DNA of 64,000 nucleotides from a virus: the IMG/VR virus record IMGVR_UViG_3300027747_000004, positions 32,001 to 96,000 of that record; one strand, given 5' to 3'. Shown here in pieces: positions 8,129 through 41,644 of this stretch (the first letter of the stretch is position 1; every line of letters begins with the position of its first letter). A program made the position numbers and the translations under genes. The notes under the pieces are model-generated. The model saw only the letters and a program-made list of their open reading frames with translations, ran no database searches and was not told where the DNA came from.

Positions 8129-11035
8129 ATGGCCAAGAGACCCTACCGCGACCCGAAGACCACCAAGATCGAGGACTGGATCTGGCACCCCATGGAAAAC
8201 ATCCGCCAGCAACTCAGCACCCGACGCGAGCTGCCCGAGCACGTGATGCCCTACGCCGAGCACATGCAGCAGATGGCCAGCAAGGCGCAGGCCGGGCAGA
8301 TCAGCCCCCGCGACCTGATCAAAGCCTACACCATCACGCAGGCCAGCATCGGCCGCGGGGGCCTGAGCCACGCCACGGCCACCAAGAACGGCATGAAGCT
8401 GCAAGACACCGGCGAAGAGTTCCGCCCCGAGGGCGTGTTTGCCGAGTGGCTGGGCTCGCCTGAGGGCCAAAAATACTTGGACGACGCCGAGCGGGGCAAG
8501 GTCAACGCCCGGTCAATCCGGGACGTCGTCGCCAAGTTCTCCCCCTTCGGCAAGCAGAACGTGCAGGGCGAGGCCATGGAGTACGCGGCCCAGCACCTGC
8601 CCCAGCAGACCGCGGCGGCCAACGCCGCGCTGACCGGGTCGCTTGAAGACTACCGCAAGTTTGCCCGGGCAATCCACGGCATCAACAGCGCCAAGAGCGG
8701 GTTCATCGGCTCGCTGCTGGGCCGTGGTGACCAGCCCACGCTGGACGCCCGCCAGATCGCCCTGCACTCGCTGTACCACCCGACCAAGGTGGCCCAAAGC
8801 GTGATGGACCGCGGCAACGGCCTGGGCGGCGAGGAGGCGGTGGACCGCCTGACAGCCCGGCACAACGACCTGGGCTACACCATCCCGCCCGAGCTGGCGC
8901 CCTTCGCCCAGCACCTGATCCACCACGACATCTGGGACCAGCGCGGCGAGAACGGCCCGACCAAAACGACGCACGAGGACCTGATCCGGGCCATGCGCGG
9001 CTACGCCAAGGGTGGAGACGTGGAGCCCACCCCCGAGCAGATGCGCGAGATGCTGGCCCAGCACGGCTACATAGAGCACACACCCAAAAAACCTCATGCC
9101 GCCGTTGGCCAGCGCTATGACGTAGACCAGGCATACGGCCTTGCCCCAAAAAACGACGTGGACTTAGAGAAGCACAAGGGCGCTAGTTTGATGGTCATGC
9201 CGTGGGACAGCACCAGCCGCAACGTGCAGGTGCGCAGCATATCCGGCCACGAGCTGCCCGAGCACATTACCACGCACGGCGGCCAGGACTACGCCCGTGA
9301 CCTTGAGCACATCCTGCAGGGCATCGCAGGCGCATCAAACGAGGGGATAGCCAAACGTATTGCTGCCCGCGAAATGCAGGCCCGGATAGAAAATCTCGGC
9401 CAAGGTGGCACCGGTGAGATATTGCACATGCCCATTACCATGGGCGAGCGTGGCGAAGACTTTTCCATGACACCCACCGAGATCCTGCACCAGTTGGTAA
9501 TGCGCGGCATGCTGCCGCCAGAGGAATTGGAGCGCATGAACAACGAAATCCGCGCGCACAAAATAATTTTGAACAAAAAATCCGTCCAACCCTTTGGGGG
9601 TTTTGTTGGCCTAGAGCACCCCGAGTTTGACCAGCAAATAGTCACAGGCAAAGGCGTCGACACGACAGCAGGAAACCTGCGCAAGGCCATCGTAAACCGC
9701 GTTGGCTACCTGAAGCACAACCAAAAGGCGCTGGACTTCAACATTGAAGACCTGGTCAACGCGGTCACCGACCCCACGTTGCGCGGCGTGCCCAAGGGTT
9801 ACATCGGCAACACGGTCATTGGCAGCGACCCCGACCACATGACGCTGACACCGTCCAGCAATAAGGCGTACGACACCAACTTCTCCGGCCAGTACCTGGG
9901 CACGCTTGGCCACAGTTTTCCGGCCGAGGTGTTATTTGAAAAAGTTCTGCAGCAACTCCAGTCAAAGCACACTGGGAAAAAAGGGAATCTTCGTAACATG
10001 GCGTTGGGGGACCTTGAAAAGAGCAAAGCAAACGTATCCCAGATCTTGGACAACGAGACGCTGGACCGCTACGGCAAGTACCTGATGGCGCGCGACAAGA
10101 AGATCCGCACCGGCCATTACGCCGAGGGCGGTGAGGTCAAGAACGACGAGCCCAGCCACGACGAGATGCTGGCGCACATCATGCTCAAGGGCGTCAGCAG
10201 CCTGAAGGACGTCGGGGCCAACGAGGCGCCCAACATGCCGGTCAAGACCTACGTGCCAGCGGGTCCGGGCAAGGGCTTTCCCATCGGTGGCGTAGACTTC
10301 CAGCCCCAGCAGCCCGGCCAGCAGATGCTGCCTGGCCAGCCGCAACAACCTAGCCAACCGCAACAGCCCGGCCAGCCGCAACAGCCCGGCCAGCAAGCAG
10401 CGCCAGCACCACAGGGCCCACAGCAACCCCAGCCGCCCAGCAACATCCTGCAGATGACGCGCCAAGGCCAGACCATGAACGCGATCGCACCGCCCCAGCC
10501 GCAAGCCAAGATGGCAGGCGGCGGATCAACCCCGCCGTCGGTGGAGGAGATGCGCCGGGCCATTGCCAGCGCGGCCACGTCGGCGGGCATGAAGGCGCCC
10601 GTGACTAACACGCGCAATATGATGACCCTGCAGGACACCCACCAGTCGCTGCAGGACAGGATTCGCGGGGGCGCTGCCGACATGCAGAACATGATCGAGT
10701 CCATGCCGTTTAAGTACGACGTGGGGCACGACGTGTTTACCGCCCACAGCGCCAAAAACAACCTGCCACCGTTCAAAGTGATCCGCAGGGCATTGGTGGG
10801 GAATTCCCCCATGCGTGAGGACCACCCAACGCTCGGACCAAACATGGGCAAGTTCATCAAGGACCCGGCAACCGGCAAGACCAAACGCACACCATACGAG
10901 CCGGGCTATGACGTTCGCAGGGAGCACAAAGGCGAGGTGCACAAGATGCGCATCCCCGAGTCCGCAATTGTTGACAAGCTAGCAGGCGGCGGCACGGTCA
11001 AGGACTACATCACCATCACGGAGCGCCCACTATGA
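8129..11035 (+). CDS. Modular polyvalent-type protein 1 (HhH glycosylase-like module plus unknown modules separated by xxxGG motifs)
   Basis: Motifs YAKGG, YAEGG, MAGGG, LAGGG; ATG 8129 after AGGA. Confidence 0.75.
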   Translation: MAKRPYRDPKTTKIEDWIWHPMENIRQQLSTRRELPEHVMPYAEHMQQMASKAQAGQISPRDLIKAYTITQASIGRGGLSHATATKNGMKLQDTGEEFRPEGVFAEWLGSPEGQKYLDDAERGKVNARSIRDVVAKFSPFGKQNVQGEAMEYAAQHLPQQTAAANAALTGSLEDYRKFARAIHGINSAKSGFIGSLLGRGDQPTLDARQIALHSLYHPTKVAQSVMDRGNGLGGEEAVDRLTARHNDLGYTIPPELAPFAQHLIHHDIWDQRGENGPTKTTHEDLIRAMRGYAKGGDVEPTPEQMREMLAQHGYIEHTPKKPHAAVGQRYDVDQAYGLAPKNDVDLEKHKGASLMVMPWDSTSRNVQVRSISGHELPEHITTHGGQDYARDLEHILQGIAGASNEGIAKRIAAREMQARIENLGQGGTGEILHMPITMGERGEDFSMTPTEILHQLVMRGMLPPEELERMNNEIRAHKIILNKKSVQPFGGFVGLEHPEFDQQIVTGKGVDTTAGNLRKAIVNRVGYLKHNQKALDFNIEDLVNAVTDPTLRGVPKGYIGNTVIGSDPDHMTLTPSSNKAYDTNFSGQYLGTLGHSFPAEVLFEKVLQQLQSKHTGKKGNLRNMALGDLEKSKANVSQILDNETLDRYGKYLMARDKKIRTGHYAEGGEVKNDEPSHDEMLAHIMLKGVSSLKDVGANEAPNMPVKTYVPAGPGKGFPIGGVDFQPQQPGQQMLPGQPQQPSQPQQPGQPQQPGQQAAPAPQGPQQPQPPSNILQMTRQGQTMNAIAPPQPQAKMAGGGSTPPSVEEMRRAIASAATSAGMKAPVTNTRNMMTLQDTHQSLQDRIRGGAADMQNMIESMPFKYDVGHDVFTAHSAKNNLPPFKVIRRALVGNSPMREDHPTLGPNMGKFIKDPATGKTKRTPYEPGYDVRREHKGEVHKMRIPESAIVDKLAGGGTVKDYITITERPL

Positions 11036-14000
11036 GCGGAATGTACTCACCCATTAACCGCGCTGCGGAGTCCATCACCCGCCCCAAGGGCACCGGTGCT
11101 GAGTACATGGCCGAGCTGCAGAAGAAGCCCGGCTACAAGCCCGCTGAGGCGCAGGACCGCGACCTGCAGGCGCTCATGGCGCTGCCCCAGATGGCGCGTG
11201 CGGCCTTCATGGAAAAGCTCAAAGCGCAAAAGAACAAGTACCCGCTCAAGCAGCGAGAGCTGACCGGCAGACAGACGCACCACGAGGACTACACCCTACC
11301 CGGTGGTGAAAACTACCGCGAGATCCTGCTGCACACACCAATGCCCGAGGGCGGAGGCTTCCTCGGCGTGCCGCACCACTTTGGCGGCACACCCAATATC
11401 CTTGCCAGCATTCGCGTCAAGGATCGCACCACGCCAGAAGGCAAGAAGATGCTGCACCTTGAGGAGATCCAATCCGACTGGCACCAGCACGGGCGCGAAG
11501 AGGGGTATCGACCCGCAACGTCCGAAGATGATGTTCGCAAAGCATATAACGCTCAACCACACAACGCAGTGCCGTTTGATGAGTTGCTTCCCGCCGACAA
11601 AGCGTACGAAATCCAACAATACGAAAAATCCCAAAAAGGCGTCCCTTACGGCCCCCACGCCAAGGACTGGCACGAATTGGCGCTCAAGGCCATGATCCAG
11701 CACGCCGCCGAGAACGGCTACGACCAGATTGCCATCACGCCCGGCGCGGAGCAGGCCAAGCGGTATGACTTGAGCAAGCACGTTGGACGTATCACGCACA
11801 TGACGCATCACGATGATCCTGATAGCGGCATTTTGTTTGCTTTTGATCCATCTGGTCACCAGATAATAGAAAAACACAACGTGCCCCATTCCCAACTTCC
11901 TGAGTACATTGGCAAAGAAGGGGCGCAAAAATTATTAGGGCAAAAGCCAGATGAACATGGCTACCGTGAATTAAAAGGCCAAAACCTTGAAGTTGGTGGC
12001 GAGGGCATGAAAGGCTTCTACGACCGAATGGTGCCCAGCTTTCTGAACAAGTTCGGCAAGAAGCATGGCGTGCAGGTGCAACCGGGTGCAATTGACACAG
12101 GGGAAAATCCACATGAGGTGGTGATGGATTACTCCGACCCCAAAAATATGTACGCGGTTCGCCCCGAGGGCTCTTCAAACGTGGTGTCACGGCATTTTTC
12201 AATGCACGATGCCTACAAGGCCGCAGCAAAACTTGGGCAGTCCCCACTACACACATTCGACATCACCCCAGCCATGCGCGAGGACGTGCTCAAGAACGGC
12301 ATACCGCGCTACGATAAAGGTGGCGAGGTCAAGCCAACGCACGAACTATTTCACGGAACCAACAAAGAATTCAAAAGTTTTGATAAAGACAAAAGCCATA
12401 TTGTCAATGGTGTATGGCTGACACAGGACAAAAACTACGCAAATTGGATGGCTCGTGAAAGAGCAAAGCAAGAAAAAGGAACTGCCCCAAGGGTATTACG
12501 GGTTAGCGCGTACCACAATAACCCCATGTATTTTGATATTTTGGCAGAAGGCAAAAAAGTTGCGGAACAAATTGGCGAACCAGCACCAAAAAACGCTTAC
12601 GAGGCACAGGAGTTGCTATCGGGGGGAATGGGTTGGGATAATGTCGTTGACAATTTAGTGCATGAAGCTAAAACAAAAAAGCACGATTCCTTAATAATCC
12701 ATAATTTTAATGATAATTGGCACAGCGACCCGAATCAAACCACAACAGCCCATGTAGTGTTTGATCCTAATAAGTTAAAAATAATTGACCAGCAAAAATA
12801 CGCCGAGGGCGGCGTCGTCCACAAATCCGGCGGCGGGTCGATGTACCCAACCATCCAGGAGATGATCCGGCACCTGCAGCAGGCCGGGCGCACGCCCATT
12901 GTGCCCGCACCCAACCGCTGGTTTGCGGATCCGGTAAAGCACCCCTTCCAGCAAAAGATGATCGAGCGCGTGCTGGCGCAGACTGGCCAGGGGCGCGAGG
13001 GTTTCCCGTCGGGCTCTTACATCAACCCGCAGACGGGCGAGCCCATGGACTTTGACATCATGCACGACCTGGGCGTGGCAATCGACCCCGCCACCGGGCG
13101 GCCAATGATGTCGGGCGTCAAGTCGGACCTGACATCCATCGACCCCAAGTACGGATCCATCACCCGGAGCAATTTGGTGCGCAAGGGCCTGTTCAAGCAC
13201 GAGGGCGGCGACGACTTGCTCAAGAACATTGCATTCCTCGCGACGATCGAGAAAGGCGGCAAGGGCCACCACTACGGCCTGTCGACGCACTACGCATCAC
13301 CCGCAGAGCTGGTGAACACAATGACCGGCCAAAACCCAACGCTGCGGCCGCACAGCCGCGGTGACATCTTTGGCGTGGGCGACGAGGTTGGGCGCATTTC
13401 TATCCAGGGCAAACACCACCCGGTCTATGAGAAGTTGCTGGTGGCGCCCACAGGCTCGGACGTGCAGGGCGTGAAGTTGCACAAGGCTAAGGGCGGCAAA
13501 GTTTCCGGTGAAACCAAAGCAGAGTTCATCAGCAAAAGCAAAGTGCCTGACGTGCTGTACCGTGGTGGTATCGGGCACCCAGATATGTCGGAAGACTTTT
13601 TGAAAGGCAAAGCACGGCCAGGTTACTCTACCTTTGCCTCTACGTCTCCGCACGTCGCTGGAAGCTACGCGCATCCTGATTGGGATCAATCGTGGGGTAC
13701 CCAAGACCTGGTCGGCGCAATTGCGCCTATGCACATCAAGGTGCATACGGTGCATGAGTTTCCGGTGACCACCAATAAGCATGGGTCTCGCCAATTTAGC
13801 AAATTTGAGTTTGATCGACGCGCTCAACAACTGGAGCCCGGCCATGCGTTGGTGGCGCGGCAAGTGTTTGACATGGGCCCGCGAGCTAGTGTCAAAACTG
13901 ATCCTGACAAGCTGTACAGTTACCCTAGCGACATATACGCTTGGAACAACGGCACCGAAGTGAAGTCCGCTTTTGAGAAAGCCAAAGGCGGCTCCATCAA

Positions 14001-14070
14001 AGCTAAAGTTACAATGCCGCCCAGTATGGACACGATGCAGTACGAGCTGATCAACAGGAAAGCAAAATAA
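11032..14070 (+). CDS. Modular polyvalent-type protein 2 (EEIQSDW domain plus two ADP-ribosyltransferase-like modules)
   Basis: PGGENYRE / EEIQSDWHQ / GYDQIA / GMKGFYD; FHGT..GVWLT..NP..VVFDP; LYRG..FASTSP..SYA. Confidence 0.75.
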   Translation: MSGMYSPINRAAESITRPKGTGAEYMAELQKKPGYKPAEAQDRDLQALMALPQMARAAFMEKLKAQKNKYPLKQRELTGRQTHHEDYTLPGGENYREILLHTPMPEGGGFLGVPHHFGGTPNILASIRVKDRTTPEGKKMLHLEEIQSDWHQHGREEGYRPATSEDDVRKAYNAQPHNAVPFDELLPADKAYEIQQYEKSQKGVPYGPHAKDWHELALKAMIQHAAENGYDQIAITPGAEQAKRYDLSKHVGRITHMTHHDDPDSGILFAFDPSGHQIIEKHNVPHSQLPEYIGKEGAQKLLGQKPDEHGYRELKGQNLEVGGEGMKGFYDRMVPSFLNKFGKKHGVQVQPGAIDTGENPHEVVMDYSDPKNMYAVRPEGSSNVVSRHFSMHDAYKAAAKLGQSPLHTFDITPAMREDVLKNGIPRYDKGGEVKPTHELFHGTNKEFKSFDKDKSHIVNGVWLTQDKNYANWMARERAKQEKGTAPRVLRVSAYHNNPMYFDILAEGKKVAEQIGEPAPKNAYEAQELLSGGMGWDNVVDNLVHEAKTKKHDSLIIHNFNDNWHSDPNQTTTAHVVFDPNKLKIIDQQKYAEGGVVHKSGGGSMYPTIQEMIRHLQQAGRTPIVPAPNRWFADPVKHPFQQKMIERVLAQTGQGREGFPSGSYINPQTGEPMDFDIMHDLGVAIDPATGRPMMSGVKSDLTSIDPKYGSITRSNLVRKGLFKHEGGDDLLKNIAFLATIEKGGKGHHYGLSTHYASPAELVNTMTGQNPTLRPHSRGDIFGVGDEVGRISIQGKHHPVYEKLLVAPTGSDVQGVKLHKAKGGKVSGETKAEFISKSKVPDVLYRGGIGHPDMSEDFLKGKARPGYSTFASTSPHVAGSYAHPDWDQSWGTQDLVGAIAPMHIKVHTVHEFPVTTNKHGSRQFSKFEFDRRAQQLEPGHALVARQVFDMGPRASVKTDPDKLYSYPSDIYAWNNGTEVKSAFEKAKGGSIKAKVTMPPSMDTMQYELINRKAK

Positions 14071-16706
14071 TGGCCGACACCTACGACAACGGGGACGACG
14101 ACATGGACCCTGAGCTGAACGAAGACGGGTCCGCGGACGTTGAGCTGCCAGAGGACGTGTCTGACGTCACCGAGATGCCCGACGGCTCGGCGGTGGTGCA
14201 CCTGCCGGAGACAACCGGCCCAGAAGAGACGCCCGACTTCTACGCCAACATGGCCGAGGAGATGGACAGCTACGAGCTCAACACGCTCGGCATGCGCTAC
14301 GTCAGCCTGCTGGAGAAGGACAAGAACGCCCGCGAGGAGCGCGACAAGCAGTACGAGGAAGGCCTACGGCGCACTGGCCTAGGCAAGGACGCCCCCGGCG
14401 GTGCCAACTTCCTTGGCGCAAGCCGCGCCGTGCACCCGGTCATGGCCGAGGGCTGCGTTGACTTTGCCAGCCGCGCGATCAAGGAGCTGTTCCCACCAGA
14501 TGGCCCGGTGCGCACTAAGATCATTGGCAAGGTCGACGAGCTTAAGCAAGAGCGCGCCGAGCGCAAGCGCGACTTCTTGAACTGGCAGATTACCGAGCAA
14601 ATCGAAGAGTTCCGCGACGAGCAGGAACAGATGCTCACCCAGCTGCCGCTTGGCGGCTCGCAGTACCTCAAGCTGTGGTACGACGAGCAAAAGAAGCGCC
14701 CGGTCATCGAGTTCCTGCCCATCGACCGCATGATCCTGCCGTTTGCGGCCAGCAACTTCTACACCGCCCAACGCGCGGCCGAGGTGCACGAGATCACCGA
14801 GTGGGAATACGACCGGCGCATCGCCAGCGGCATGTACAAGGACGGCTCGCACGTCACCTCCGGCAACGAGCCCGAGCAGACGCGCGCGCAGAAGGCCAAC
14901 GACAAGATTGAGGGCCGCAAGTTCCAGGACAACGACGACGGCCTGCGCAAGGTGTTCCACATCTATACCTGGCTGGAGCTGGAGGACGACCGGCAATCCA
15001 AGGGCGAGATGGCCCCCTACATCATGATGGTGGACGAGCAGTCCAGCGAGGTGATCGGCCTGTACCGCAACTGGGAAGAGGGCGACGACACGATGACCAA
15101 GCTCGACTGGATCGTCGAGTTCAAGTTCATCCCGTGGCGCGGCGTGTTTGCCATCGGCCTGCCCCACCTGATCGGCGGCCTGAGCGCGGCCCTGACCGGC
15201 TCCCTGCGCGCGCTGCTAGACAGCGCCCACATCAACAACGCGGCGACCATGCTCAAGCTCAAGGGTGCCAAGATCAGCGGCCAGACGCAGCAGATCGAGG
15301 TCACTCAGGTGGCCGAGATCGAGGGCGCGCCCGGCGTAGATGACATCCGCAAGATCGCGATGCCCATGCCCTTCAACCCACCCAGCGAGACGCTATTCAA
15401 GCTGTTGGGCTGGCTGGACAGCGCGGCCAAGGGCGTGGTCACCACGTCCGAGGAGAAGATCGCCGATGTCAATGCTAACGCTCCGGTAGGTACTACCCAA
15501 GCGTTGATTGAGCAGGGCGCTGCCGTCTACTCCGCAATCCACGCGCGCCTGCACCAGTCGCAGGCTCGCCTGATCAAGGTGCTGTGCCGCCTGAACCGCT
15601 GGCACTTCAAGGAAATGCGCAAGGGCGACATGGTCGCGGACCTTGAGATCGAGCGCGAGGACTTCGAGCGCAACACCGACGTCATCCCGGTCAGCGACCC
15701 GCACATCTTTAGCGAAACCCAGCGCATGGCGCAGATGCAGGCCGTGTTGGCCCGCGCGGACGCCAAGCCAGACCTGTACGACGCCAAAGCCGTGGAGGAG
15801 CGTTTCCTCAAGCAGATCAAGATTCCCAACGTCAGCGAGCTGCTCAAGGACGTGCCCGAGCCCGAGCAGCGCACTTTGGCCGACGAGAACGCGGCGATGT
15901 CCATGGGCCACCCGGCGTATGCCTACATGCAGCAGGACCACATCGCGCACATCCAAGGCCACCTAATGTTTGGCCTAGACCCGAGCTTTGGCGGCAACCC
16001 GCTAATCGCGCCAAACTACCAGCCCAACGCGATTGAACACATCAAGCAGCACATTACGCTGTGGTACCTCAACCGCATGAACGGCTACGTCATTAACCTG
16101 CGCGGCGGCAAGCCGGTGGACGACTATGAAAATCCGCACCTGACCGCCACCATCGACAAACTGTACGCCACCGTCGGCGAGCACGTCGCGTTGGACGGCC
16201 AGATGGTGTTCCAGCAGATCCTGCCGCAACTTCAACAGATGCAGCAGGCAATGCAACAGAACAAGCCACAACCCCAACTGCCGCCCGATGCCCAGGTGGT
16301 CAAGGACACCGCGATGGCCGAGACCCAGCGCAAAGCGGCCAAGGACCAGCAGGAGATGCAGCTCGCCCAAGCCAAGCTGCAGGACAGCCAACAGCGCACC
16401 CAGGCCGAGATGCAGGCCAACGCGCAGAAGGCCCAGCAGGACACGCAGGTCAACATGCAGAAGGCCCAGCAGGACGCCCAGCTCAAGATGCAGGACCTCC
16501 AGGCAACGTCTCAGGCCAAGCTGCAGGACACGCAGGTCGATATCCAAGCACGCGAGCAAGAGTCCATGCGCAATGCGCAACTACAATTGGAACTAGAGCG
16601 CATGCACGACCAGACGCAGATTGACATTACAAACGCAAAGTTAACCCACGAAACCATACAGAGTATGGTCCAACCCCAAGGAGCTCCAGATGGCAACCTC
16701 GAATAA
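14070..16706 (+). CDS. Portal protein (P22-like, long Q-rich C-terminal coiled coil)
   Basis: HPVMAEGCVDF..AIKELFPPDGPV, LPLGGS, APVGTTQAL, SAIHARLH, DVIPVSDP; size and position. Confidence 0.88.
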   Translation: MADTYDNGDDDMDPELNEDGSADVELPEDVSDVTEMPDGSAVVHLPETTGPEETPDFYANMAEEMDSYELNTLGMRYVSLLEKDKNAREERDKQYEEGLRRTGLGKDAPGGANFLGASRAVHPVMAEGCVDFASRAIKELFPPDGPVRTKIIGKVDELKQERAERKRDFLNWQITEQIEEFRDEQEQMLTQLPLGGSQYLKLWYDEQKKRPVIEFLPIDRMILPFAASNFYTAQRAAEVHEITEWEYDRRIASGMYKDGSHVTSGNEPEQTRAQKANDKIEGRKFQDNDDGLRKVFHIYTWLELEDDRQSKGEMAPYIMMVDEQSSEVIGLYRNWEEGDDTMTKLDWIVEFKFIPWRGVFAIGLPHLIGGLSAALTGSLRALLDSAHINNAATMLKLKGAKISGQTQQIEVTQVAEIEGAPGVDDIRKIAMPMPFNPPSETLFKLLGWLDSAAKGVVTTSEEKIADVNANAPVGTTQALIEQGAAVYSAIHARLHQSQARLIKVLCRLNRWHFKEMRKGDMVADLEIEREDFERNTDVIPVSDPHIFSETQRMAQMQAVLARADAKPDLYDAKAVEERFLKQIKIPNVSELLKDVPEPEQRTLADENAAMSMGHPAYAYMQQDHIAHIQGHLMFGLDPSFGGNPLIAPNYQPNAIEHIKQHITLWYLNRMNGYVINLRGGKPVDDYENPHLTATIDKLYATVGEHVALDGQMVFQQILPQLQQMQQAMQQNKPQPQLPPDAQVVKDTAMAETQRKAAKDQQEMQLAQAKLQDSQQRTQAEMQANAQKAQQDTQVNMQKAQQDAQLKMQDLQATSQAKLQDTQVDIQAREQESMRNAQLQLELERMHDQTQIDITNAKLTHETIQSMVQPQGAPDGNLE

Positions 16707-17021: not shown

Positions 17022-17071
17022 GCCCCAAGCCGCGCTGAGATATGCGCATTTTCAAACCTGAAATATGGTTT
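17022..17071 (+). promoter_or_regulatory. Tandem hairpins with TGA(G/A)ATAT loops upstream of GroES-like gene
   Basis: GCGC-TGAGATAT-GCGC and AAACC-TGAAATAT-GGTTT. Confidence 0.5.
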
Positions 17072-17089
17072 TTGTCGATAGGAGTGAGT

Positions 17090-17548
17090 ATGAGCGAGAA
17101 AGAAAAGATACCTACCATTGGTGGTGTCCAACAAGAGTCCGACCCAACTGAGCTGGCGTGGGCATTTCCAGACGTTTTACCCGGGCAAGCCCCGCTAGGT
17201 GGCCGCGTCATTGTCCAACTTCGCCGCATCAAGAAAAATGCCGGAAAGATTATCCTGGTCGAGGAGACCAAGGAGAATGAGAAGTGGAACAACATGATCG
17301 GCAGGGTGGTCGCGATTGGTCCTTTGGCCTACCGCAACCGCGACACCATGCAGGTGTGGCCCGAAGGAAGTTGGGCTGAGATCGGTGACTACGTGCGCGT
17401 GCCTCGGTGGGGCGGGGATCGCTGGGAGCGACCCGTGCTTAACGAAGAAAACGGCGACCTGAACCCGGTCCTGTTCATGACAATCAACGACCACGAGGTG
17501 ATTGCGAAGGTCACTGACGACCCGTTGTCATTTAAAGCCTACGTTTAA
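17090..17548 (+). CDS. GroES-like co-chaperonin
   Basis: PLGGRVIV, GKIILVE, GRVVAIGP, GDYV, INDHEVIAKV; SD AGGAG before ATG 17090. Confidence 0.85.
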   Translation: MSEKEKIPTIGGVQQESDPTELAWAFPDVLPGQAPLGGRVIVQLRRIKKNAGKIILVEETKENEKWNNMIGRVVAIGPLAYRNRDTMQVWPEGSWAEIGDYVRVPRWGGDRWERPVLNEENGDLNPVLFMTINDHEVIAKVTDDPLSFKAYV

Positions 17549-19702: not shown

Positions 19703-20617
19703 ATGGCTGCACCAATGAGAAGTACGGACTTTCGTTCAATCGTCGAACCGATTTTGAACGAATGCTTCGACGGCGTTTACGACCAACGCGCTGATGAATG
19801 GTCTCGTGTCTTCCGCGAGGAAGACGGTATCCCCCGCAACTACCACGAAGAACCCGTCCTTTACGGTTTCGGCGCGGCACCCCAACTGCCTGACGGCACC
19901 CCGGTGACGTACCAACAAGGTGGCGTGTTGTTCCTGAAGCGCTATGTCTACAAGGTCTACGGTCTGGCTTTTGCCTTGACCAAGGTCCTGGTGGAAGACG
20001 GCGACCACATCCGCTTGGGCCAAGTGTACGCACGTCATTTGGCACAGTCGCTAGTGGAGACCAAGGAACTGCTGTCCGCTAACGTCTTGAACGTGGCATT
20101 CAACAGCTCCTACCCCGGTGGCGACGGCGTGCCTTTGATCAGCACCGCCCACCCCATCGTGAACGGTACCTTCAGCAACCAGTTGGCCACCGCCGCTGTT
20201 CTGTCCCAGACATCTCTTGAGCAGATGCTGATCCAGATCCGCCAGGCAGTGGACAACAACGGCAAACGTATCCGCTTGGTGCCACGTCAGTTGGTCGTTG
20301 CCCCCGGCAACGTGTTCCAAGCTGAGGTGCTGCTGAAGTCGGTCCTGCGCACCGGCAACGCCAACAACGACATCAACCCGGTGAAATCCATCGGCTTGTT
20401 GGATGAGGGCGCTGCCGTTCTGTCTCGCTTGACCAGCGCCAACGCATGGTGGGTCCAGACCGATGCACCCGAGGGCTTCAAGCTCTTGATGCGTCGTCGT
20501 CTGGAAAAGACCATGGAAGGCGACTTCGAGACCGACTCGATGCGCTACAAGGCTACCGAGCGTTATGATGTGGGCTTCACTGACCCCCGTTGCGCTTACG
20601 GCACACCTGGTATCTAA
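19703..20617 (+). CDS. Major capsid protein (HK97 fold, Mu gpT-like family)
   Basis: EE..LYGFGAAP, YGLAFALT, GDGVPL.STAHP, F.T..MRYKATERY..GFTDPR; followed by terminator. Confidence 0.88.
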   Translation: MAAPMRSTDFRSIVEPILNECFDGVYDQRADEWSRVFREEDGIPRNYHEEPVLYGFGAAPQLPDGTPVTYQQGGVLFLKRYVYKVYGLAFALTKVLVEDGDHIRLGQVYARHLAQSLVETKELLSANVLNVAFNSSYPGGDGVPLISTAHPIVNGTFSNQLATAAVLSQTSLEQMLIQIRQAVDNNGKRIRLVPRQLVVAPGNVFQAEVLLKSVLRTGNANNDINPVKSIGLLDEGAAVLSRLTSANAWWVQTDAPEGFKLLMRRRLEKTMEGDFETDSMRYKATERYDVGFTDPRCAYGTPGI

Positions 20618-20696: not shown

Positions 20697-21947
20697 ATGC
20701 CTCAATTCGCAGATGACATCTTTCTGGGCGGTAACAACGGCCAGACCTACATGGGCACCGGCAACTACCCTGCCACGTCCGTATTTACCGGCCGTATTGC
20801 TACGACCACCCTTACCGTATATTCGACCCAGTCCGGTGACCCTTTGGTAGTTGGCCAGTACATTACCGGCTCTAGCGTAACCGCCAACTCCTACATCACC
20901 GCTGACCTCGGACAGGATAGCTCTGGTCGCAATACTTATACCCTGTCTCAGTCATCTACCGTGTCGTCCAACACAACTATGACGGCCGCTGGCAACGCCT
21001 TGCTGGGCGATCCTTCGCCGATGTCTTTGGGCGTTGGTCCTTTGGGCCGCATCTACGTGTTTGACACCGTGCCCCAGACCCTGCAGGCCGCAAACATCGC
21101 TGCATCGCAAACTCAAACTGCTGCAGGCGCGTTGACCCTGACTGCCGGTACCTCGGCTCGATCTGTGACCCGCAGCGATGGCACCACGGTGATTCAGTTG
21201 GACGTTCCTCGTGCAACCAGCGTCACGACCGGTACAGCAACCGGAACGGCTTTGGCTGGCGTGGCCACGACTGGCACCGGCGGCCAGATCTCGTTCACGT
21301 CTAATACCAGCGTGTACACCGGCCAGTACGTGACCGTGTCTGGCACCGCAGGCGGTACCGGTTCGATTACTGGCTACAGCAACCCTACGACCTACATCCT
21401 GTCTGCCGTAACCGCTACTACCGCGACCCTGTTGACCACCGCAAGCGGTGCTGTTGCATCTACCGCGGGTACGATTACTGGCCTGACCTTTACCCTGGGC
21501 GCGGCTCCCCGCGCTATGACGGTTGCGGGCTACGACTACTACGGCCAGGCCATGAGCGAGGTTATCACCAGCAGCTCTTCGGTCAGCACCGCAGTCAGCG
21601 GCAAGAAAGCGTTCTACCAGATCTCTTCTATCACCAGCGCAGGTGCAACCGGAACTGCGGTAACCGCAGGAACCACCGACGTGATTGGTTTGCCAGTCCG
21701 CGTGACGGACGCAGGCTACGTGATCAAGGTGGGCTGGAACAACGCCCTGCTGCAGAATGCTGGTACCTTCACGGCCGCCGACATGACATTGCCAGCTACC
21801 ACTACCACAGGTGACGTGCGCGGCACATTCTTGCCTACCACAGCCTCTGATGGCACCAAGCGTTTGGTCATGTCCATCGCTGTGCCCGGTATCGCAGTCG
21901 GACCCAATGCAACCCGCACTGGTGCCCTTGGTGTAACCCAAGCCTAA
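20697..21947 (+). CDS. T/S/G-rich virion structural protein
   Basis: Composition, position, G.DYYGQ.MSE, DV.GLP, GDVRGT. Confidence 0.7.
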   Translation: MPQFADDIFLGGNNGQTYMGTGNYPATSVFTGRIATTTLTVYSTQSGDPLVVGQYITGSSVTANSYITADLGQDSSGRNTYTLSQSSTVSSNTTMTAAGNALLGDPSPMSLGVGPLGRIYVFDTVPQTLQAANIAASQTQTAAGALTLTAGTSARSVTRSDGTTVIQLDVPRATSVTTGTATGTALAGVATTGTGGQISFTSNTSVYTGQYVTVSGTAGGTGSITGYSNPTTYILSAVTATTATLLTTASGAVASTAGTITGLTFTLGAAPRAMTVAGYDYYGQAMSEVITSSSSVSTAVSGKKAFYQISSITSAGATGTAVTAGTTDVIGLPVRVTDAGYVIKVGWNNALLQNAGTFTAADMTLPATTTTGDVRGTFLPTTASDGTKRLVMSIAVPGIAVGPNATRTGALGVTQA

Positions 21948-23561: not shown

Positions 23562-26189
23562 ATGTCCCAACTCGTCGTCTACACAGGCCCCAGCAGCCAA
23601 ACCGATAATCAACTGCGCACACAGACTTCACAGCGTTCGGCTGCATATGACCCTGTGGACAAGTTGCGCACATCCAATCCTCAAGCATTGATTGACACCG
23701 ACTTTGAGTATGGCACCCAGCCAACCAAATGGGAATCAATCGGTCTTCAAAACAATCGTCAAAGCTGCTACTACATTGCGCAGTCCCCACTGACAATCAC
23801 GGGCATCACGGGCGCAAACACCTTGAATGGCGGATTCACGTTAGCAGGCACTTTCAGCTTGACCGCAGGCGACATCATCTACATTCAAAACTCCCTGAAC
23901 ACGGATTGCAATGGTTGGATGTATGTCACCACCACCTCAACAACCAGCGTCAATGTTCAAACAGCAGTAGGTACCACAATCCCTGCAACCAACTTCTACA
24001 ACAGTGCAGGAACTTACGTCTACAAAGGCTACTTTTACTCGTCATGTGGGTTTAACCTGACAGGCACCAGCGCGGTAACTAATGTTGGTACAACGATCAC
24101 GGTAACCACGACAAGCGCGCATGGTTTGAATGCAAACAGCTTGATCTACGTGGTTGGCTTGGGCGGTGGTACACCAGCCCCAAATGGCGCGTATATTGTT
24201 GCTACTGTACCTACAGCAAATACGTTCACCTACATAGTCGCATCAGCGCCTACAGTTGCCATCACCAACACAGCAGGCGCAACCAACATATACGCACGAC
24301 CTGCTGGTTATGTTGAAACTCGATCTTTTGACGGTGGCGTTGCATTCTCTGCTGGCTCTGCTGTTCCAAACCAACAGTTGATCCGCCAAACTCGTCGCTA
24401 CTTCCGTTACCAATCGGGAAAGGGCATCCAGTTTTCTACAGGTTCCTCGTTGAAGCCTTACTTGTTCAACCCATCGTTGAGTGCAAGCGGAACATCTATC
24501 GGCGCAACCATTACGGTCACCACGCAGTTTCCTCATAACCTAACTGCAAACACAGTTGTGACGGTTGCAGGCGTGGATCAAACGGGTTACAACGGCACAT
24601 ACACAATTCTTTCTACGGGCTTGACTGCAACTGCATTTACTTACACTGCAACAACCGCCCCTTCCTCTACAACAGCAACTGGATTGAACATCAAGGTCAG
24701 CCCGTTTAGTTGGTATGGATCAGGCAATCGCATTGGCTTCTTTGATCAACAAAACGGAATGTTTTTTGAGTTTGACGGCCAAGTACTGTATGCAGTGTTA
24801 CGTAGTTCTACAACCCAAATTAATGGCAGGTCAACTGTAACTACGGGTTCTGGAACCATTACAGGAACAGGAACGCAGTTTAGCACGCAACTGAAACCCG
24901 GCGACTATATTGTTATACGCGGTCAGTCGTACAAGGTGATCACAATCACCAGCGACACCTCCATGCAAGTCTCCCCAGAGTACCGAGGTGGCACGATCAG
25001 CCAGGGCGGTGTAATTATTTCTAAGACAATTGATACACGTACGCCACAGTCGCAGTGGTTTGACGTATGTGATGGCACAAGCAGTATCAATAACCCTTCG
25101 GGCTATCTGCTTGATTTGACGCGCATGCAAATGTGGTATATCGATTACTCATGGTATGGCGCTGGCTATGTTCGTTTTGGATTTCGCGGTAAAGACGGTG
25201 CGGTGACCTATGTGCATCAGATCCAAAACAACAACATCAAGTACGAAGCCTACATGCGTTCTGGCAACATGGCAGCGCACTACGAGTCCAACAACCAGTC
25301 GCTGGTGACCTACATTACTGCGTCTGCAGGAACAAGCGATACCACATTGAACGTGGCAAGTACCACAGCATTTGCGCCTACTGGTACTTTAAAAGTGCAA
25401 GCAAGCGGTACGTCTGGTGTAATTGAGTACATGACCTACACAGGCAAGACGGACACCACGTTTACCGGGTTGACTCGTGCAACCACTGGTGGCGCTGCTA
25501 CCGCGCAGTCATTTACTTACTCTGCTACCGCCCCGGTTGCAGTTGAATACGCATCACCTGACACTGCTGCGGCTCTGTCTCACTGGGGTTCTTCGGTCAT
25601 CATGGATGGGCAGTTCAATGATGACAAGTCGCTGATCTTTAACTACGGAACCACGGCGCAGCTTGCTGTTCCTGCGGGGGCAACCGTCCCTATTATTGCG
25701 ATTCGTATTGCACCATCTGTGGACAACGGACAGGTTGGCCTGCTTGGTGTTAAAGAAATTGTCAACCGTATGCAACTGCAATTGGTTGAGTTGGGTATTG
25801 TTTCTGCTGGTACGTTTCTAATTAACTTGGTTTTGAATGGATACTGCACTAGCTTTAGCGGGTCATGGAGTTCACCTACAGTCTCCAATGGGTACACCTC
25901 TTCATTAGCGCAAGTAGCGGTTAACACAACTACTACAGCGTCAATTAGCGGCGGTGAATCAGTTGCTGCAGCGTTCACCAATTCAAGCGGGCAAACTACA
26001 CTAGATTTAAGTGGAGTTCGGGATTTGGGTAACTCTATCCTTGGGGGCGGTACTACCTCTTCGGTTCCAACCGGACAATCGGGGCAGTACCCAGATGGGC
26101 CTGATATTTTGTATGTAGCTGCTACTAATACGGCAGGATCAGCTACAAATATTTTGGCTCGTTTGAGCTGGAAAGAAGCGCAGGCCTAA
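23562..26189 (+). CDS. Large beta-rich virion structural/adhesion protein
   Basis: LIDTDFEYG, RQTRRYFRYQSGKG, IDYSWYGAG; repeated TITVTT..H.L beta domains. Confidence 0.7.
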   Translation: MSQLVVYTGPSSQTDNQLRTQTSQRSAAYDPVDKLRTSNPQALIDTDFEYGTQPTKWESIGLQNNRQSCYYIAQSPLTITGITGANTLNGGFTLAGTFSLTAGDIIYIQNSLNTDCNGWMYVTTTSTTSVNVQTAVGTTIPATNFYNSAGTYVYKGYFYSSCGFNLTGTSAVTNVGTTITVTTTSAHGLNANSLIYVVGLGGGTPAPNGAYIVATVPTANTFTYIVASAPTVAITNTAGATNIYARPAGYVETRSFDGGVAFSAGSAVPNQQLIRQTRRYFRYQSGKGIQFSTGSSLKPYLFNPSLSASGTSIGATITVTTQFPHNLTANTVVTVAGVDQTGYNGTYTILSTGLTATAFTYTATTAPSSTTATGLNIKVSPFSWYGSGNRIGFFDQQNGMFFEFDGQVLYAVLRSSTTQINGRSTVTTGSGTITGTGTQFSTQLKPGDYIVIRGQSYKVITITSDTSMQVSPEYRGGTISQGGVIISKTIDTRTPQSQWFDVCDGTSSINNPSGYLLDLTRMQMWYIDYSWYGAGYVRFGFRGKDGAVTYVHQIQNNNIKYEAYMRSGNMAAHYESNNQSLVTYITASAGTSDTTLNVASTTAFAPTGTLKVQASGTSGVIEYMTYTGKTDTTFTGLTRATTGGAATAQSFTYSATAPVAVEYASPDTAAALSHWGSSVIMDGQFNDDKSLIFNYGTTAQLAVPAGATVPIIAIRIAPSVDNGQVGLLGVKEIVNRMQLQLVELGIVSAGTFLINLVLNGYCTSFSGSWSSPTVSNGYTSSLAQVAVNTTTTASISGGESVAAAFTNSSGQTTLDLSGVRDLGNSILGGGTTSSVPTGQSGQYPDGPDILYVAATNTAGSATNILARLSWKEAQA

Positions 26190-26190: not shown

Positions 26191-26736
26191 ATGCCACTAG
26201 TCAAAAGCAAATCAAAAGAAGCGTTCAGCAAAAACATTTCTGCAGAAATGAAAGCTGGCAAGCCGCAAAAGCAAGCGGTAGCCATTGCCTACTCTGTTAA
26301 GAATGCTGTTGGCAAAAAGTCTGGTGGCTTGTGGGATAACATTCACGCTAAGCAAGAGCGCATTAAAAATGGATCTGGCGAGCGTATGCGCAAGCCCGGC
26401 TCAAAAGGCGCGCCAACCGCTGCCGACTTTAAAGCATCAGCTAAGCCTGCCAAAATGAAAAACGGCGGCGACCCTGTGCTGTCTGTTAGCCGCGGTGAAA
26501 AGTTGCCTACAAGCCAAGGCGCAGGTTTGACGCAAAAAGGACGTGACAAGTTTAACCGCGCAACTGGTAGCAACCTTAAGGCTCCGCAGGCAAAAGGCTC
26601 CAGACATGACTCATTTTGCGCAAGAATGAGTGGCATGCCTGGGCCTATGAAAGATGATAAAGGCCGCCCAACACGCAAAGCCGCGTCGCTAAAACGCTGG
26701 CATTGCGCTACAGGCGGCACAGTTAAAAACTACTAG
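26191..26736 (+). CDS. Basic protein made of three small phage modules joined by xxxGG
   Basis: GKPQKQAVAIAYS / LWDNIHAK..KPGSKGAPT / GLTQKGR..NLKAP..SFCARM..KRWHC. Confidence 0.75.
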   Translation: MPLVKSKSKEAFSKNISAEMKAGKPQKQAVAIAYSVKNAVGKKSGGLWDNIHAKQERIKNGSGERMRKPGSKGAPTAADFKASAKPAKMKNGGDPVLSVSRGEKLPTSQGAGLTQKGRDKFNRATGSNLKAPQAKGSRHDSFCARMSGMPGPMKDDKGRPTRKAASLKRWHCATGGTVKNY

Positions 26737-34633: not shown

Positions 34634-34640
34634 TGTTCAA

Positions 34641-35120: not shown

Positions 35121-35121
35121 A

Positions 35122-36047: not shown

Positions 36048-36054
36048 GTATAAA

Positions 36055-36914: not shown

Positions 36915-36916
36915 TC

Positions 36917-38131: not shown

Positions 38132-39900
38132 TGACAGCTGACGTTATTTCGCTAACAATACCTCCTGGTATTCAGCGGGATGGTACTGTTTTTGACTCGC
38201 CTATGTACGTAGATGGAGTATGGGTTCGATTTCAGCGTAAGCGCCCTCGTAAAATAGGTGGCTACAATGCAATGTTCTTGAATGCCGCTGAAATTAGTCG
38301 CGGCATGGTAATGCAGTCAACGCAAGGCTTGAACTACGTGTATTCAGGCTCTGCTAGTTACATTCAGCAGTGGTCTACATCTAATACGGATGGCGTAGGC
38401 TCGGGCCCAACTAATGTATTGACGTCATCAACGGCTGACTTTACTGCAAGTGCAAACAACTTATGGCAGTTTGATGTAGGTAATAATCTTGGTTCAGGCA
38501 TTCAAGTAGTTGCTCACCCAGGTCAAAACCTTGCAGCAATTGATAGCACAGTAAATACGCCTGTTTTGTCAGGCGCATTTCCAGGTGGCGCACTAACAAA
38601 AGTTGGCGTATTTACTGCGACAGGCACAATTAGTGGCACAGGCAGTGTTACATTTACTATCTCATCTGCTAACTACTTAATTGATGTAGGCCAAACAGTT
38701 ACAGGTGGCGGTATTGCAACAACTGCAACAGTTACGTCATCTGTTGTCAATGGCTCAGTCACTGTAGTTACATTATCAGCAGGCGGCACTGCAGGCACGC
38801 AAACACTTACATTTGACAATAACATTTCAGTGTCGGGCGGCGCTGTGATGCTGTACCCATATCTTTTTGTGTATGGCAACAATGGCTACGTGCAAAACTC
38901 TTCAGCAGGTGACTTCACTAATTGGGTTGCGCCCGATGCCAACATTGTCAATATTTCGGCTACAAAAGTAGTGAAGGGTATGGCGCTTCGCGGCGGTACT
39001 GCGTCACCATCCGGTTTATTTTGGTCGCTTGACCAGTTAACGCGTATTAGCTACGCGCCTACGCCCATCGGTAGCTCCACACAATATTGGCGTGCAGACA
39101 TTATCTCAACGCAAACGTCAATCTTGTCATCGCAATGCGCCATTGAGTATGATGGCTTGATCTTCTGGATTGCTGTTGATCGCTTTATGGTTTACAACGG
39201 CGTTGCACAAGAGTTACCTAATGGTACCAACCTCAACTTTTTCTTCGACAATCTAAACTACGCACAGCGCCAAAAAGTTTGGGCAGCCAAGGTTCCACGT
39301 TGGGGAGAGATCTGGTGGTTTTACCCCCATGGCACAGCCACTGAGTGCAACAACGCCATCATCTATAATGTTCGCGAACAGGTCTGGTATGATGCAGGGT
39401 TTGCTACAGGCGCGCAACGCTCAGCAGGTGTGTTTTCAGAAGTGTTTAGATACCCAGTATGGGCTGACAATGCCGCAAATAGCAATAGCAAATATACGTT
39501 ATGGCAGCACGAGTTTGGAAAGAATCGTCAATACCTAACTGCCGTTACTGCCATTCAAAGTTATTATGAAACAAATTGCATTGGGTGGGTAACTGGCGGA
39601 CCTGGGCAAAACGCTGTGCAAGGGGCCAATCGTTGGATGCGTTTAGAACGCATAGAGCCTGATTTTGTGCAAGTTGGCGATATGAGTGTGACTGTTATTG
39701 GCGCAGGTTATGCAGACGAGCCAGATTCTTACTCTGATCCGTATATTTTTAGCCCGTCAACATATAAAATAGACATGCGTGAGCAAAAACGTGAGATGCG
39801 TTTGCGCTTCGAATCTAACACTTTTAATGGCGACTATGAAACAGGCAAAGTGCTGCTTAGCGTCAGTGTGGGTGATGAACGTAGTACAGGCAACCCATGA
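38131..39900 (+). CDS. Tail nozzle / P22 gp10-like stabilisation protein
   Basis: PGIQRDGT, WVRF....PRKIGG, GEIWWFYP, IYN.....WY, R.EPDF. Confidence 0.7.
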   Translation: MTADVISLTIPPGIQRDGTVFDSPMYVDGVWVRFQRKRPRKIGGYNAMFLNAAEISRGMVMQSTQGLNYVYSGSASYIQQWSTSNTDGVGSGPTNVLTSSTADFTASANNLWQFDVGNNLGSGIQVVAHPGQNLAAIDSTVNTPVLSGAFPGGALTKVGVFTATGTISGTGSVTFTISSANYLIDVGQTVTGGGIATTATVTSSVVNGSVTVVTLSAGGTAGTQTLTFDNNISVSGGAVMLYPYLFVYGNNGYVQNSSAGDFTNWVAPDANIVNISATKVVKGMALRGGTASPSGLFWSLDQLTRISYAPTPIGSSTQYWRADIISTQTSILSSQCAIEYDGLIFWIAVDRFMVYNGVAQELPNGTNLNFFFDNLNYAQRQKVWAAKVPRWGEIWWFYPHGTATECNNAIIYNVREQVWYDAGFATGAQRSAGVFSEVFRYPVWADNAANSNSKYTLWQHEFGKNRQYLTAVTAIQSYYETNCIGWVTGGPGQNAVQGANRWMRLERIEPDFVQVGDMSVTVIGAGYADEPDSYSDPYIFSPSTYKIDMREQKREMRLRFESNTFNGDYETGKVLLSVSVGDERSTGNP

Positions 39901-40130
39901 TAGTTTACGATCCGCGAGGCATGTCATGGGACCAATGGTGCGCGCTTATGATTGAGCTTTTTGCTGCGCAGCAGTTAAGCAAGTACCCAGAAGAGCAATG
40001 GCAAGACTGGGCGCAGTCATTGCAAGGCATTGGCTATTTCAACAATTCAGCAGTGCCTGATGCACGTGGCTACTCAGACTGGCAAAGCTGGGCAAGTGCA
40101 TTGACTGGCATTATGTCAATAAGGGGCTAG
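39897..40130 (+). CDS. Small Trp-rich hypothetical protein
   Basis: ATGA coupling; W..WA repeats. Confidence 0.7.
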   Translation: MIVYDPRGMSWDQWCALMIELFAAQQLSKYPEEQWQDWAQSLQGIGYFNNSAVPDARGYSDWQSWASALTGIMSIRG

Positions 40131-40132
40131 AT

Positions 40133-41644
40133 ATGCCAAGAGATAGTAGTGATGATATAACTGCAAGCACACCTGGTGCAGTGCTTGATCCCGGCAATTC
40201 GAGGCGCGACCCTTATTGGCGTATGCCTACTGAAGCTGAGAAAGCAAAAGCATCTTATGATGCCGCATACGCAGCACTTAGTCCTGCGCTCAAAGCTAAA
40301 GTAGAAAGCGGTCAACTTAGACTTGACATCATTGAGTCCAATGTAGGCGGAAGCCATAATTCTGAAATGGCACCCTCTGGCATTCGCGGTTTTACTGCGC
40401 CTGCGGGTGGAGATATGTTGAATGTGTACGACATCAATGGTAATTTAACTAAACAAGTTAATGCTCACGGTGATGATGGCGGTTTCTTTGATCGAGTGTT
40501 TAGCGGCGTTGGAGATTTCTTTGCTGACCCAGCAAAGGCAACCACTCAGTTTTTTAAAAATCCAGGAGTAACAGAGGCCACCTTGGCGGCTGCTGCTTTA
40601 TACGGAATGCCTGCGCTTCAAGAGCTTGCTGCCGGAACTGGGGCGGCGGCTGGTACTGCAGCTTCTGTTGCACCAGAAGTTCTTGCTGCAGATTTAGCGG
40701 CGTATCCAACAGCTGGAATTGTTGGCGATGTTTCTGCTGCGGCTTCAGGCATCCCATCTTTACCCGCGAATGATGTATATGTTCCACCTGAAGCAGTAAG
40801 CACGCCTCCTAACTTACCCGCGAATGATGTATATGTTCCACCTGAAGCAGTAAGCACGCCTCCTAACTTACCCGCGAATGATGTATATGTTCCACCTGAA
40901 GCAGTAAGCACGCCCCCTAACTTACCCGCGAATGATGTATATGTTCCACCTGAAGCAGTAAGCACGCCTCCAGGAATACCTGCATATGATGTATATGTTC
41001 CACCTGAAGCAGTAAGTGGGCCAAGCTTAACTGCTTCGGCAATAGTAAAAAGCTTAATTGCTGGTAAAAACGCAATAGACAGCGCAAAGTCATTGTTTGG
41101 CACATCGCCACAAGGCTTAACGCAGCAAGGGCTTAACATGCTAAACCCTTCAGGTGGCGGTAGTGTGTCTTCACAAAACTTGCAAAGCACCGGTCTTACA
41201 AGCACTGCGCCTTCAGGCAATGAAGGCATTTTAAAGCAGCTTGTGCAAATGTATCCGCAAATGGCTAACGTATCGCCACAAACTATGGCGGCAATTTCGC
41301 CGCATATGCAGCAGATTGAGCAAACACCAATGCCTGAAGAGCAGCCTCGCTACTTTGCTGAAGGCGGGCTTTCAAGCCACAAACCTGAATTTATTACAGG
41401 CGCAACTGGGCACTACGTTAAAGGTCGTGGCGATGGGCAGTCTGATGACATTCCTGCAATGCTTGCAGATGGCGAGTATGTGTTTGATGCAGACACTGTT
41501 GCAGCACTTGGTAATGGCTCTTCTGATGCAGGTGCAAAACGTTTGGATGAAATGCGAGAAGCTATTCGTAAGCATAAACGCTCTGCGCCTATACATAAAA
41601 TTCCACCAAAGGCCAAATCGCCTTTAGAATACATTAAAGGATAG
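40133..41644 (+). CDS. Putative ejection/internal virion protein with C-terminal FAEGG..GDGQSDDIPAMLADGEYV domain
   Basis: Position after nozzle; low complexity; C-terminal domain resembles that near the C-termini of tape-measure proteins. Confidence 0.65.
   Translation: MPRDSSDDITASTPGAVLDPGNSRRDPYWRMPTEAEKAKASYDAAYAALSPALKAKVESGQLRLDIIESNVGGSHNSEMAPSGIRGFTAPAGGDMLNVYDINGNLTKQVNAHGDDGGFFDRVFSGVGDFFADPAKATTQFFKNPGVTEATLAAAALYGMPALQELAAGTGAAAGTAASVAPEVLAADLAAYPTAGIVGDVSAAASGIPSLPANDVYVPPEAVSTPPNLPANDVYVPPEAVSTPPNLPANDVYVPPEAVSTPPNLPANDVYVPPEAVSTPPGIPAYDVYVPPEAVSGPSLTASAIVKSLIAGKNAIDSAKSLFGTSPQGLTQQGLNMLNPSGGGSVSSQNLQSTGLTSTAPSGNEGILKQLVQMYPQMANVSPQTMAAISPHMQQIEQTPMPEEQPRYFAEGGLSSHKPEFITGATGHYVKGRGDGQSDDIPAMLADGEYVFDADTVAALGNGSSDAGAKRLDEMREAIRKHKRSAPIHKIPPKAKSPLEYIKG
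40760..41017 (+). repeat. 54-bp in-frame tandem repeat (LPANDVYVPPEAVSTPPN), 4 copies plus 1 degenerate
   Basis: Units start at 40760, 40814, 40868, 40922, 40976. Confidence 0.95.

Follow-up and report, generated by a model that had tools for sequence, protein, structure and literature searches.

Why should one short Gly-Gly peptide recur in several late phage proteins, at the borders of otherwise unrelated modules? The question is raised by a 64,000-nucleotide stretch of viral DNA (hereafter the window; bases 32001-96000 of the 110,994-bp contig of IMG/VR record IMGVR_UViG_3300027747_000004), in which a first interpretation made without database searches (the sequence-only reading) had noted the pattern [YFMLK]xxGG in five late open reading frames (ORFs). 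These encode two long proteins (ORF1 and ORF2), a K/G-rich 518-amino-acid (aa) protein, and proteins of 181 and 503 aa. The pattern had been taken for a maturation cleavage site and/or a capsid-loading or ejection tag, with its DNA doubling as a recombination junction. Here, we report that modules are gained, lost, and swapped exactly at this conserved junction, and we weigh proteolytic processing against docking, a passive hinge, and chaperonin recruitment as its function. The contig carries two phage genomes, called phage A (ORF1, ORF2, and the 518-aa protein; GC content, about 0.6) and phage B (the 181-aa and 503-aa proteins; GC content, about 0.48).

Form and enrichment of the junction peptide

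Every GG motif that had been listed was found at its place, giving 32 distinct [YFMLK]xxGG sites in the five ORFs. Enrichment of this pattern was assessed with 500 composition-preserving shuffles per protein. The observed count was reached in 0/500 shuffles for ORF1 (8 observed; shuffle mean, 2.06), ORF2 (10; 2.20), the 518-aa protein (14; 4.01), and its 265-aa phage B counterpart (11; 1.81); the counts in the 181-aa protein (2; 0.66) and the 503-aa protein (1; 0.84) were not significant alone, but relatives lend support to the sites of both. All remaining contig proteins, pooled, stood at expectation (42 observed; shuffle mean, 47.7), so the portal, capsid, and replication proteins are not partitioned by the motif, as the sequence-only reading had held. 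Across 80 related loci, loose sites numbered 898 (182 expected) in the K/G family and 145 (40 expected) in a DUF6321-type small-protein family, and the core [YFMLK]A.GG was 14-fold enriched in motif-bearing families (446 versus 31.0). A chance origin of the motif counts was ruled out by the shuffles of contig proteins and of related loci.

Positions that the pattern does not fix are biased as well: counting from the first Gly, Ala occupies −2 at 51% of 338 non-redundant sites and Val occupies +3 at 37%, and of the 116 sites picked solely as A.GG.[VI], 112 have K, Y, M, L, F, or R at −3. The motif is frequently doubled at a spacing of 9 to 10 residues (for example, Y-A-x-G-G-x-V-H-M-A-x-G-G), and a helix cap, P[ST]xx[EQ]M, lies at most 25 residues after a GG motif in 290 of its 344 occurrences, versus 48.6 expected. 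We would describe the junction as a conserved, putatively disordered element of the form [K/Y/M/L/F]-A-x-G-G-x-[V/I], often doubled and usually with this helix cap within 25 residues.

The K/G-rich protein belongs to a family of at least 3160 members with 8 to 14 motif sites each, in which GG pairs are among the few invariant columns of the alignment. Its AlphaFold2 (AF2) model, built with 68 aligned sequences, was disordered (mean predicted local distance difference test [pLDDT], 53.9; predicted template modeling score [pTM], 0.22), and the idea that the motif forms part of a folded repeat was rejected on this disorder despite a deep alignment. Internal duplication, noted earlier for the motif-bearing proteins, was confirmed in this one as two 41-aa units, both opening with the motif and identical at 27 of 41 positions; Tandem Repeats Finder detected no DNA tandem repeat beneath them.

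The motif had also been placed close to C-termini, and 87% of 240 homologues indeed terminate at most 40 residues past the last GG motif. Their C-terminal tails are of two conserved types, independent of the preceding module: one is GG-[ST]-[VI]-K-D-Y-I-x-I-T-E-R-P-L and variants, and the other is GG-x-[VI]-K-x-K-V-T-x-x-P-x-M-D-x-M-Q-Y-E-L. In relatives, some small proteins (61 and 144 aa; L060:12553-12738 and L060:13143-13577, with copies in L062-L065 and L077) finish with a GG motif and, behind it, a His/Cys-rich tail (..S-T-H-H-E-N-S-K-H-K-G-C-W), and the K/G family likewise has a C-terminal Cys (..GG-S-A-K-C); such tails may be metal binding or thiol reactive.

These features also suit an assembly or ejection signal that works without cleavage, a serious rival, if an unlikely one. 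The junction, helix cap, and tails would then be short linear motifs that dock cargo to the scaffold, the capsid interior, or the portal, and the K/G protein, disordered and with 8 to 14 conserved copies, would be the multivalent version, comparable to T4 capsid-targeting sequences and encapsulin cargo-loading peptides. The position of the last GG, the two tail types found whatever module precedes them, and the proximity of the helix cap all fit docking. So does the scaffold-like family (the 322-aa protein of the window and members at loci L015-L055), which ends in ..A-A-[YF]-G-G-.. with a helix, L[ST]xE[QR]V[RK]AM, behind it; to judge by its residues, this end resembles the cargo helix cap and may be a common capsid-binding element. 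Docking is less easily squared with the occurrence of the same motif at a mapped cleavage site in phage T5 (see below), or with the −3 class (K, Y, M, L, F, R), which resembles the P1 preference of a protease more than a single binding pocket.

Module exchange at the junction

ORF1 and ORF2 belong to the polyvalent proteins, a class known from phages and conjugative elements (Iyer, Burroughs, Anand, de Souza, and Aravind, 2017; PMC5512222). Each strings several unrelated domains on one chain (four modules in ORF2, at least three in ORF1), the genes stand in a late-gene setting between those of the large terminase and the portal, and the signature effector domain is present as ART-PolyVal, with ORF2 residues 438-588 matching PF18760 (E value, 3.7e-9; 37.9 bits versus a cut-off of 31.2). 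The sequence-only reading gains support here, as polyvalent-type enzyme-module proteins adjoin terminase and portal. ORF1 consists of a conserved N-terminal module (N-module) up to YAKGG, variable modules, a P/Q-rich stretch, and a type-A C-terminal tail, GG-TVKDYITITERPL; ORF2 consists of an N-module with a GNAT-like fold (aa 1-422), three more modules, and a type-B tail, GG-SIKAKVTMPPSMDTMQYELINRKAK.

The AF2 model of the ORF2 N-module was confident to about residue 422 (mean pLDDT, 85.8; pTM, 0.78), and pLDDT fell below 50 from residue 429, at the motif (427-431) and beyond (this being the C-terminal end of the construct, end effects may add); the junction is predicted to be disordered. A protease role for this N-module was rejected on its GNAT-like fold (best Z, 10.3; 133 aligned; root mean square deviation, 2.9). 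The module (11032-12309) has large insertions in that fold and an invariant L-H-x-E-E-x-Q-S-D-W-H-Q, and belongs to no Pfam family; Foldseek against the PDB returned nothing for it at an E value of ≤0.001, and a PDB sequence search with ORF1, ORF2, and the 503-aa protein gave nothing useful.

That the motif borders unrelated modules had been proposed from these few ORFs, and in hundreds of homologues modules swap exactly there. ORF2 has 1315 homologues at an E value of ≤0.001, most of which match just its first ~433 residues, the alignments stopping a few residues past a conserved Y-[AD]-[EKD]-G-G; ORF1 homology likewise stops at YAKGG. When 240 homologues were compared all against all, BLAST homology ends clustered at +1 to +5, and its starts at −4 to −2, relative to the first Gly, and about 14 to 15% of breakpoints fell at most 5 residues from an aromatic motif versus 2.5% for random positions, a share that is a description and not a P value, the breakpoint pairs being non-independent. 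Cutting the homologues at the motifs yielded 57 module families (ART, GNAT, ASCH, ParB, and others) in 136 architectures, with up to 19 different neighbors for the common families; the domains recognized across homologues were PF18760, GNAT, ASCH, ParB, and PF14284. One module (ORF2 residues 605-817) recurs in 11 viral contigs, fenced by the motif on both sides and preceded by at least 8 different upstream modules. On a smaller scale, the GG motifs of the 181-aa protein separate three stretches that elsewhere are distinct PHROG families.

Base composition changes at the same places. The GC content at third codon positions (GC3) of the four ORF2 modules is 0.68, 0.39 (the ART module), 0.85, and 0.57, and three of four change points (after aa 437, 589, and 822) sit 0 to 6 codons from a motif, in agreement with the GC step reported earlier. 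In the related locus L003, a module of the ORF2 605-817 type opens the protein, and an in-frame remnant, L-Y-T-G-G, lies just upstream of the start codon (L003:3327-3353), between a stop codon and that start codon; judged by its sequence, the remnant was left behind when a deletion or recombination took place at the junction.

Exchange of this kind could be explained by a passive hinge, which we regard as improbable: a flexible Gly-Gly linker with an anchoring residue, at which alone in-frame recombinants are viable, would spread with the cassettes without being recognized by anything. The breakpoints and GC3 steps at the motif, the L003 remnant, and the predicted disorder of the junction are all what a hinge would give. 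Across 57 module families, however, Ala is retained at −2, Val at +3, and a large residue at −3, which a passive linker would not require. The K/G family, moreover, holds its motifs invariant at fixed places without module shuffling, and therefore the motif has a protein-level role beyond that of a convenient crossover point. Synonymous codons at the motif copies vary freely in this genome, leaving GGNGGN microhomology as the only common DNA; DNA homology is thus not the conserved thing, selection acts on the peptide, and the earlier idea that the motif DNA serves as a recombination signal finds no support.

Proposed processing and its alternatives

The closest mapped precedent is the T5 tape measure protein pb2, which is cut after R1127 (PMC10038345); the residues after R1127 are A-E-G-G. 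Lambda gpH loses a piece of ~14 kDa from a Gly-rich region near its C-terminus, with site and catalyst stated to be unknown in a 2025 study (PMC12617516). It contains FATGG at 733 and YATGG at 778, as expected from the earlier remark that [FY]AxGG occurs near the C-terminus of lambda-type tape measures, and a hypothetical cut at F733|A734 would yield computed fragments of 79.8 and 12.5 kDa. In TP901-1, Tal also undergoes cleavage at a Gly-rich motif, through a mechanism described as unknown (PMC9692632).

A comparable arrangement occurs in phage B. The FAEGG of the 503-aa probable ejection protein (residue 408) directly precedes a tape-measure-like C-terminal segment (41378-41566), of which residues 416-478 match the phrog_6090 and phrog_3547 tape measures; tblastn also matched annotated tape measures, and the motif is conserved as FRTGG in the 660-aa counterpart of phage A. 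Of the five proteins, only the 503-aa one has a large residue-A-x-G-G ahead of a conserved tape-measure C-terminal segment, an arrangement that lambda gpH and T5 pb2 display as well. The same protein contains 4.8 copies of a 54-bp tandem repeat (40760-41016; 95% matches) that encodes P-A-N-D-V-Y-V-P-P-E-A-V-S-T-P-P-N-L and bears no relation to the GG motif.

Because the motif matches the T5 pb2 cleavage spot, we infer from this one mapped precedent that the junction is probably a processing site, and proteolytic cutting is our most likely, though still tentative, reading. The junction links independent modules in both polyvalent proteins, which are virion associated and whose genes stand between those of terminase and portal; it sets small modules apart from the short conserved C-terminal tails and recurs 8 to 14 times in the disordered K/G protein. 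On this reading, proteins that travel out of the virion together with the DNA would be processed proteolytically at the junction. As in T5 pb2 (R1127|AEGG), the chain would be cut at A-x-G-G or immediately ahead of it, which would make the large −3 residue P1; K, Y, M, L, F, and R would suit that position if the cut falls as in T5. The cutting activity would not be a recognizable phage protease; a host enzyme or an assembly-coupled step could supply it.

Candidate enzymes were sought with Pfam and PHROG scans of the window's listed ORFs, in which the only peptidase families were an M15 (M15_3) lysin/cell-wall domain and an S74 fiber chaperone. These scans revealed no clan-CE cysteine protease, and no zincin-like or other peptidase domain in ORF1 or ORF2. 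No C39 domain was found in them either, and the GG motifs are internal or near the C-terminus, unlike N-terminal double-glycine leaders.

Several results weigh against cleavage. No maturation protease was detected among the window's listed ORFs by these scans, which a divergent enzyme could escape. The T5 parallel consists of one mapped site, at which −3 is R and not aromatic. The helix cap and the conserved tails point to binding, for which no cleavage would be needed. The pre-portal protein of phage B (1431 aa; contig 96973-101268, just past the window end) has zero GG junction motifs, so the junction is not obligatory for such proteins; despite this, phage B keeps a motif-rich K/G protein (265 aa; contig 109198-109995). 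We also rejected the idea that other virion proteins avoid the core motif: in the pooled non-bearing families of the related loci, [YFMLK]A.GG is at 0.28 of expectation (9 versus 32.3), a depletion that is not significant once each family counts once.

A long shot, which we would hardly expect to hold, is that the motif mimics the GroES mobile loop (K-S-A-G-G-I-V-L in Escherichia coli) and so brings GroEL to large multimodule virion proteins. A phage Cpn10-like protein is encoded beside the portal, and its mobile-loop equivalent is K-N-A-G-K-I-I-L. The GroES loop consists of Gly and then three small hydrophobic residues, and the study of T5 tail-protein cleavage by Zweig and Cummings (1973) is cited among studies of chaperonin-dependent phage assembly (PMC5649160). 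In the junction, just +3 is hydrophobic, with +2 and +4 mostly polar or charged, and the resemblance is short.

Should cleavage apply, a broader and in our judgment unlikely extension would make [K/Y/M/L/F/R]-A-x-G-G a general cutting code for proteins that exit tailed-phage virions via the tail, read by one common activity (host encoded or assembly coupled). Its scope, equally doubtful, would take in tape measures, podovirus ejection proteins, polyvalent effector chains, and disordered K/G-rich core proteins. If the general code is true, the activity that cuts T5 pb2 after R1127 would also cut the Gly-rich region of lambda gpH, with F733|A734 as the predicted site. Polyvalent proteins are believed to be split into separate anti-host enzymes, and the site and means of lambda gpH cleavage have been a fifty-year question; a defined junction peptide gives both processing questions a concrete, mutable target. 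The junction is common to thousands of uncultured phage proteins and sits at the single mapped tape-measure cleavage site. It offers an easy way to divide giant phage proteins into functional modules and marks a natural in-frame site of effector-cassette exchange between phages.

Genomic setting and comparison with known systems

The first 100 nucleotides (nt) of the contig were found again at 110,868, giving a 127-nt terminal overlap and a circular assembly. Protein self-comparison revealed two diverged, syntenic phage genomes, head to tail, and a 619-nt exact repeat lies inside both gene copies of an 875-aa virion protein (window 23896-24514, contig 55896-56514; and contig 110375-110994). 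Because of the syntenic halves, the repeat, the terminal overlap, and contigs of 53 to 57 kb in relatives, the 111-kb circle is most likely two related ~55-kb genomes fused by the assembler, probably chimeric, and not a single 111-kb genome. The five late proteins consequently do not form the set of one phage, as had been assumed, their ORFs being split over the two joined genomes. The phages are uncultured, probably of ~55 kb, and probably podovirus-like in their tails, an SU10-adaptor-type protein being encoded.

The gene order in phage A is large terminase, ORF1, ORF2, portal, Cpn10-like, scaffold-like, two unknowns, major capsid protein, 416-aa protein, and 518-aa K/G-rich protein (Table 1). 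For the 322-aa protein, encoded between portal and capsid, a weak hint of a scaffold came from the ESM Atlas, which returned nothing for a 182-aa protein. The 416-aa protein has one segment in common with 589-aa and 674-aa virion proteins, and its family (60 members) has far fewer [YFMLK]xxGG sites than composition predicts (4 versus 48.5).

Table 1. Features of the window that bear on the junction peptide (positions are those of the window)
Feature	Position	Strand	Remarks
Large terminase subunit	6630..8099	+	Context
ORF1, polyvalent protein 1	8129..11035	+	968 aa from ATG at 8129
ORF1 junctions	9002-9016; 10118-10132; 10508-10525; 10976-10993		YAKGG; YAEGG; KMAGGG; KLAGGG
ORF2, polyvalent protein 2	11032..14070	+	1012 aa
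ORF2 junctions	12310-12324; 12799-12837; 13483-13497; 13978-13992		YDKGG; YAEGG..KSGGG; KAKGG; KAKGG
ART-PolyVal (PF18760) module of ORF2	12343..12795	+	AT-rich, GC3 0.39; motif on either side
Portal protein	14070..16706	+	Context; motif not enriched
Cpn10/GroES-like protein	17042-17548		Directly after portal gene
Scaffold-like protein, 322 aa	17558..18526	+	Acidic N-terminus, coiled coil
Major capsid protein (Phage_capsid_4 / Mu gpT-like)	19703..20617	+	Context
G/T/S-rich 416-aa protein	20697-21947		After capsid gene
K/G-rich protein, 518 aa	21961..23517	+	Predicted disordered; 13 distinct motif sites
181-aa protein, phage B	26191..26736	+	Fusion of phrog_2423, phrog_16028, and DUF6321 modules
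181-aa protein motifs	26314-26328; 26455-26469; 26704-26733		KKSGG; MKNGG; end ..CATGGTVKNY
503-aa probable ejection protein, phage B	40133..41644	+	FAEGG 41354-41368

Among known systems, ORF1 and ORF2 share with the polyvalent class their length, their place by the virion genes, the stringing of unrelated effector domains (ART-PolyVal in ORF2), and the processing into units that has been proposed for the class. The 2017 paper proposes zincin-like metallopeptidase domains as the processing agent, and the words "linker" and "glycine" are absent from it (PMC5512222). The zincin domain is frequent in the class and not obligatory; the proteins described here lack a peptidase domain and have instead a recurring junction peptide, a helix cap, and conserved C-terminal tails.

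The tape measures of T5 (pb2, giving pb2* and pb2C) and lambda (gpH, giving gpH* and gpHC) likewise have A-x-G-G at the cut or in the Gly-rich region, and in the 503-aa protein FAEGG stands before a tape-measure-like segment. ORF1, ORF2, and the K/G protein, in contrast, are not tape measures, the phage looks podovirus-like, and the lambda site is unmapped; here, the motif also occurs many times per protein and between enzyme modules.

Polymorphic toxins have demarcation motifs (VENN in CdiA, DPxGL in Rhs) at which cassettes are exchanged, and the Rhs motif is also a cleavage site. A short conserved peptide borders constant and swappable parts in both cases, but the toxins have one border and a C-terminal variable part, whereas both ends are constant here, with several motif-fenced variable modules between them.

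The Gly-Gly-X proteases of adenovirus and African swine fever virus (ASFV) cut virion precursors next to Gly-Gly, small basic core proteins included, and the adenovirus consensus has M/I/L two residues before GG. The sequence-only reading had drawn this analogy, and it does not carry over: the large residue here lies three before GG, one position further away, the scanned ORFs contained no clan-CE protease, and the mapped phage precedent, T5, is cut before A-x-G-G and not after GG. Capsid cargo-loading peptides (the encapsulin cargo-loading peptide and the T4 capsid-targeting sequence) offer another likeness, which the conserved C-terminal tails would fit. Searching the full-text literature for the motif strings turned up no phage paper. 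Set against these systems, three things are new: carriers encoded ahead of the portal in a podovirus-type phage, with both ends constant; C-terminal tails that are conserved; and a disordered K/G family filled with the motif.

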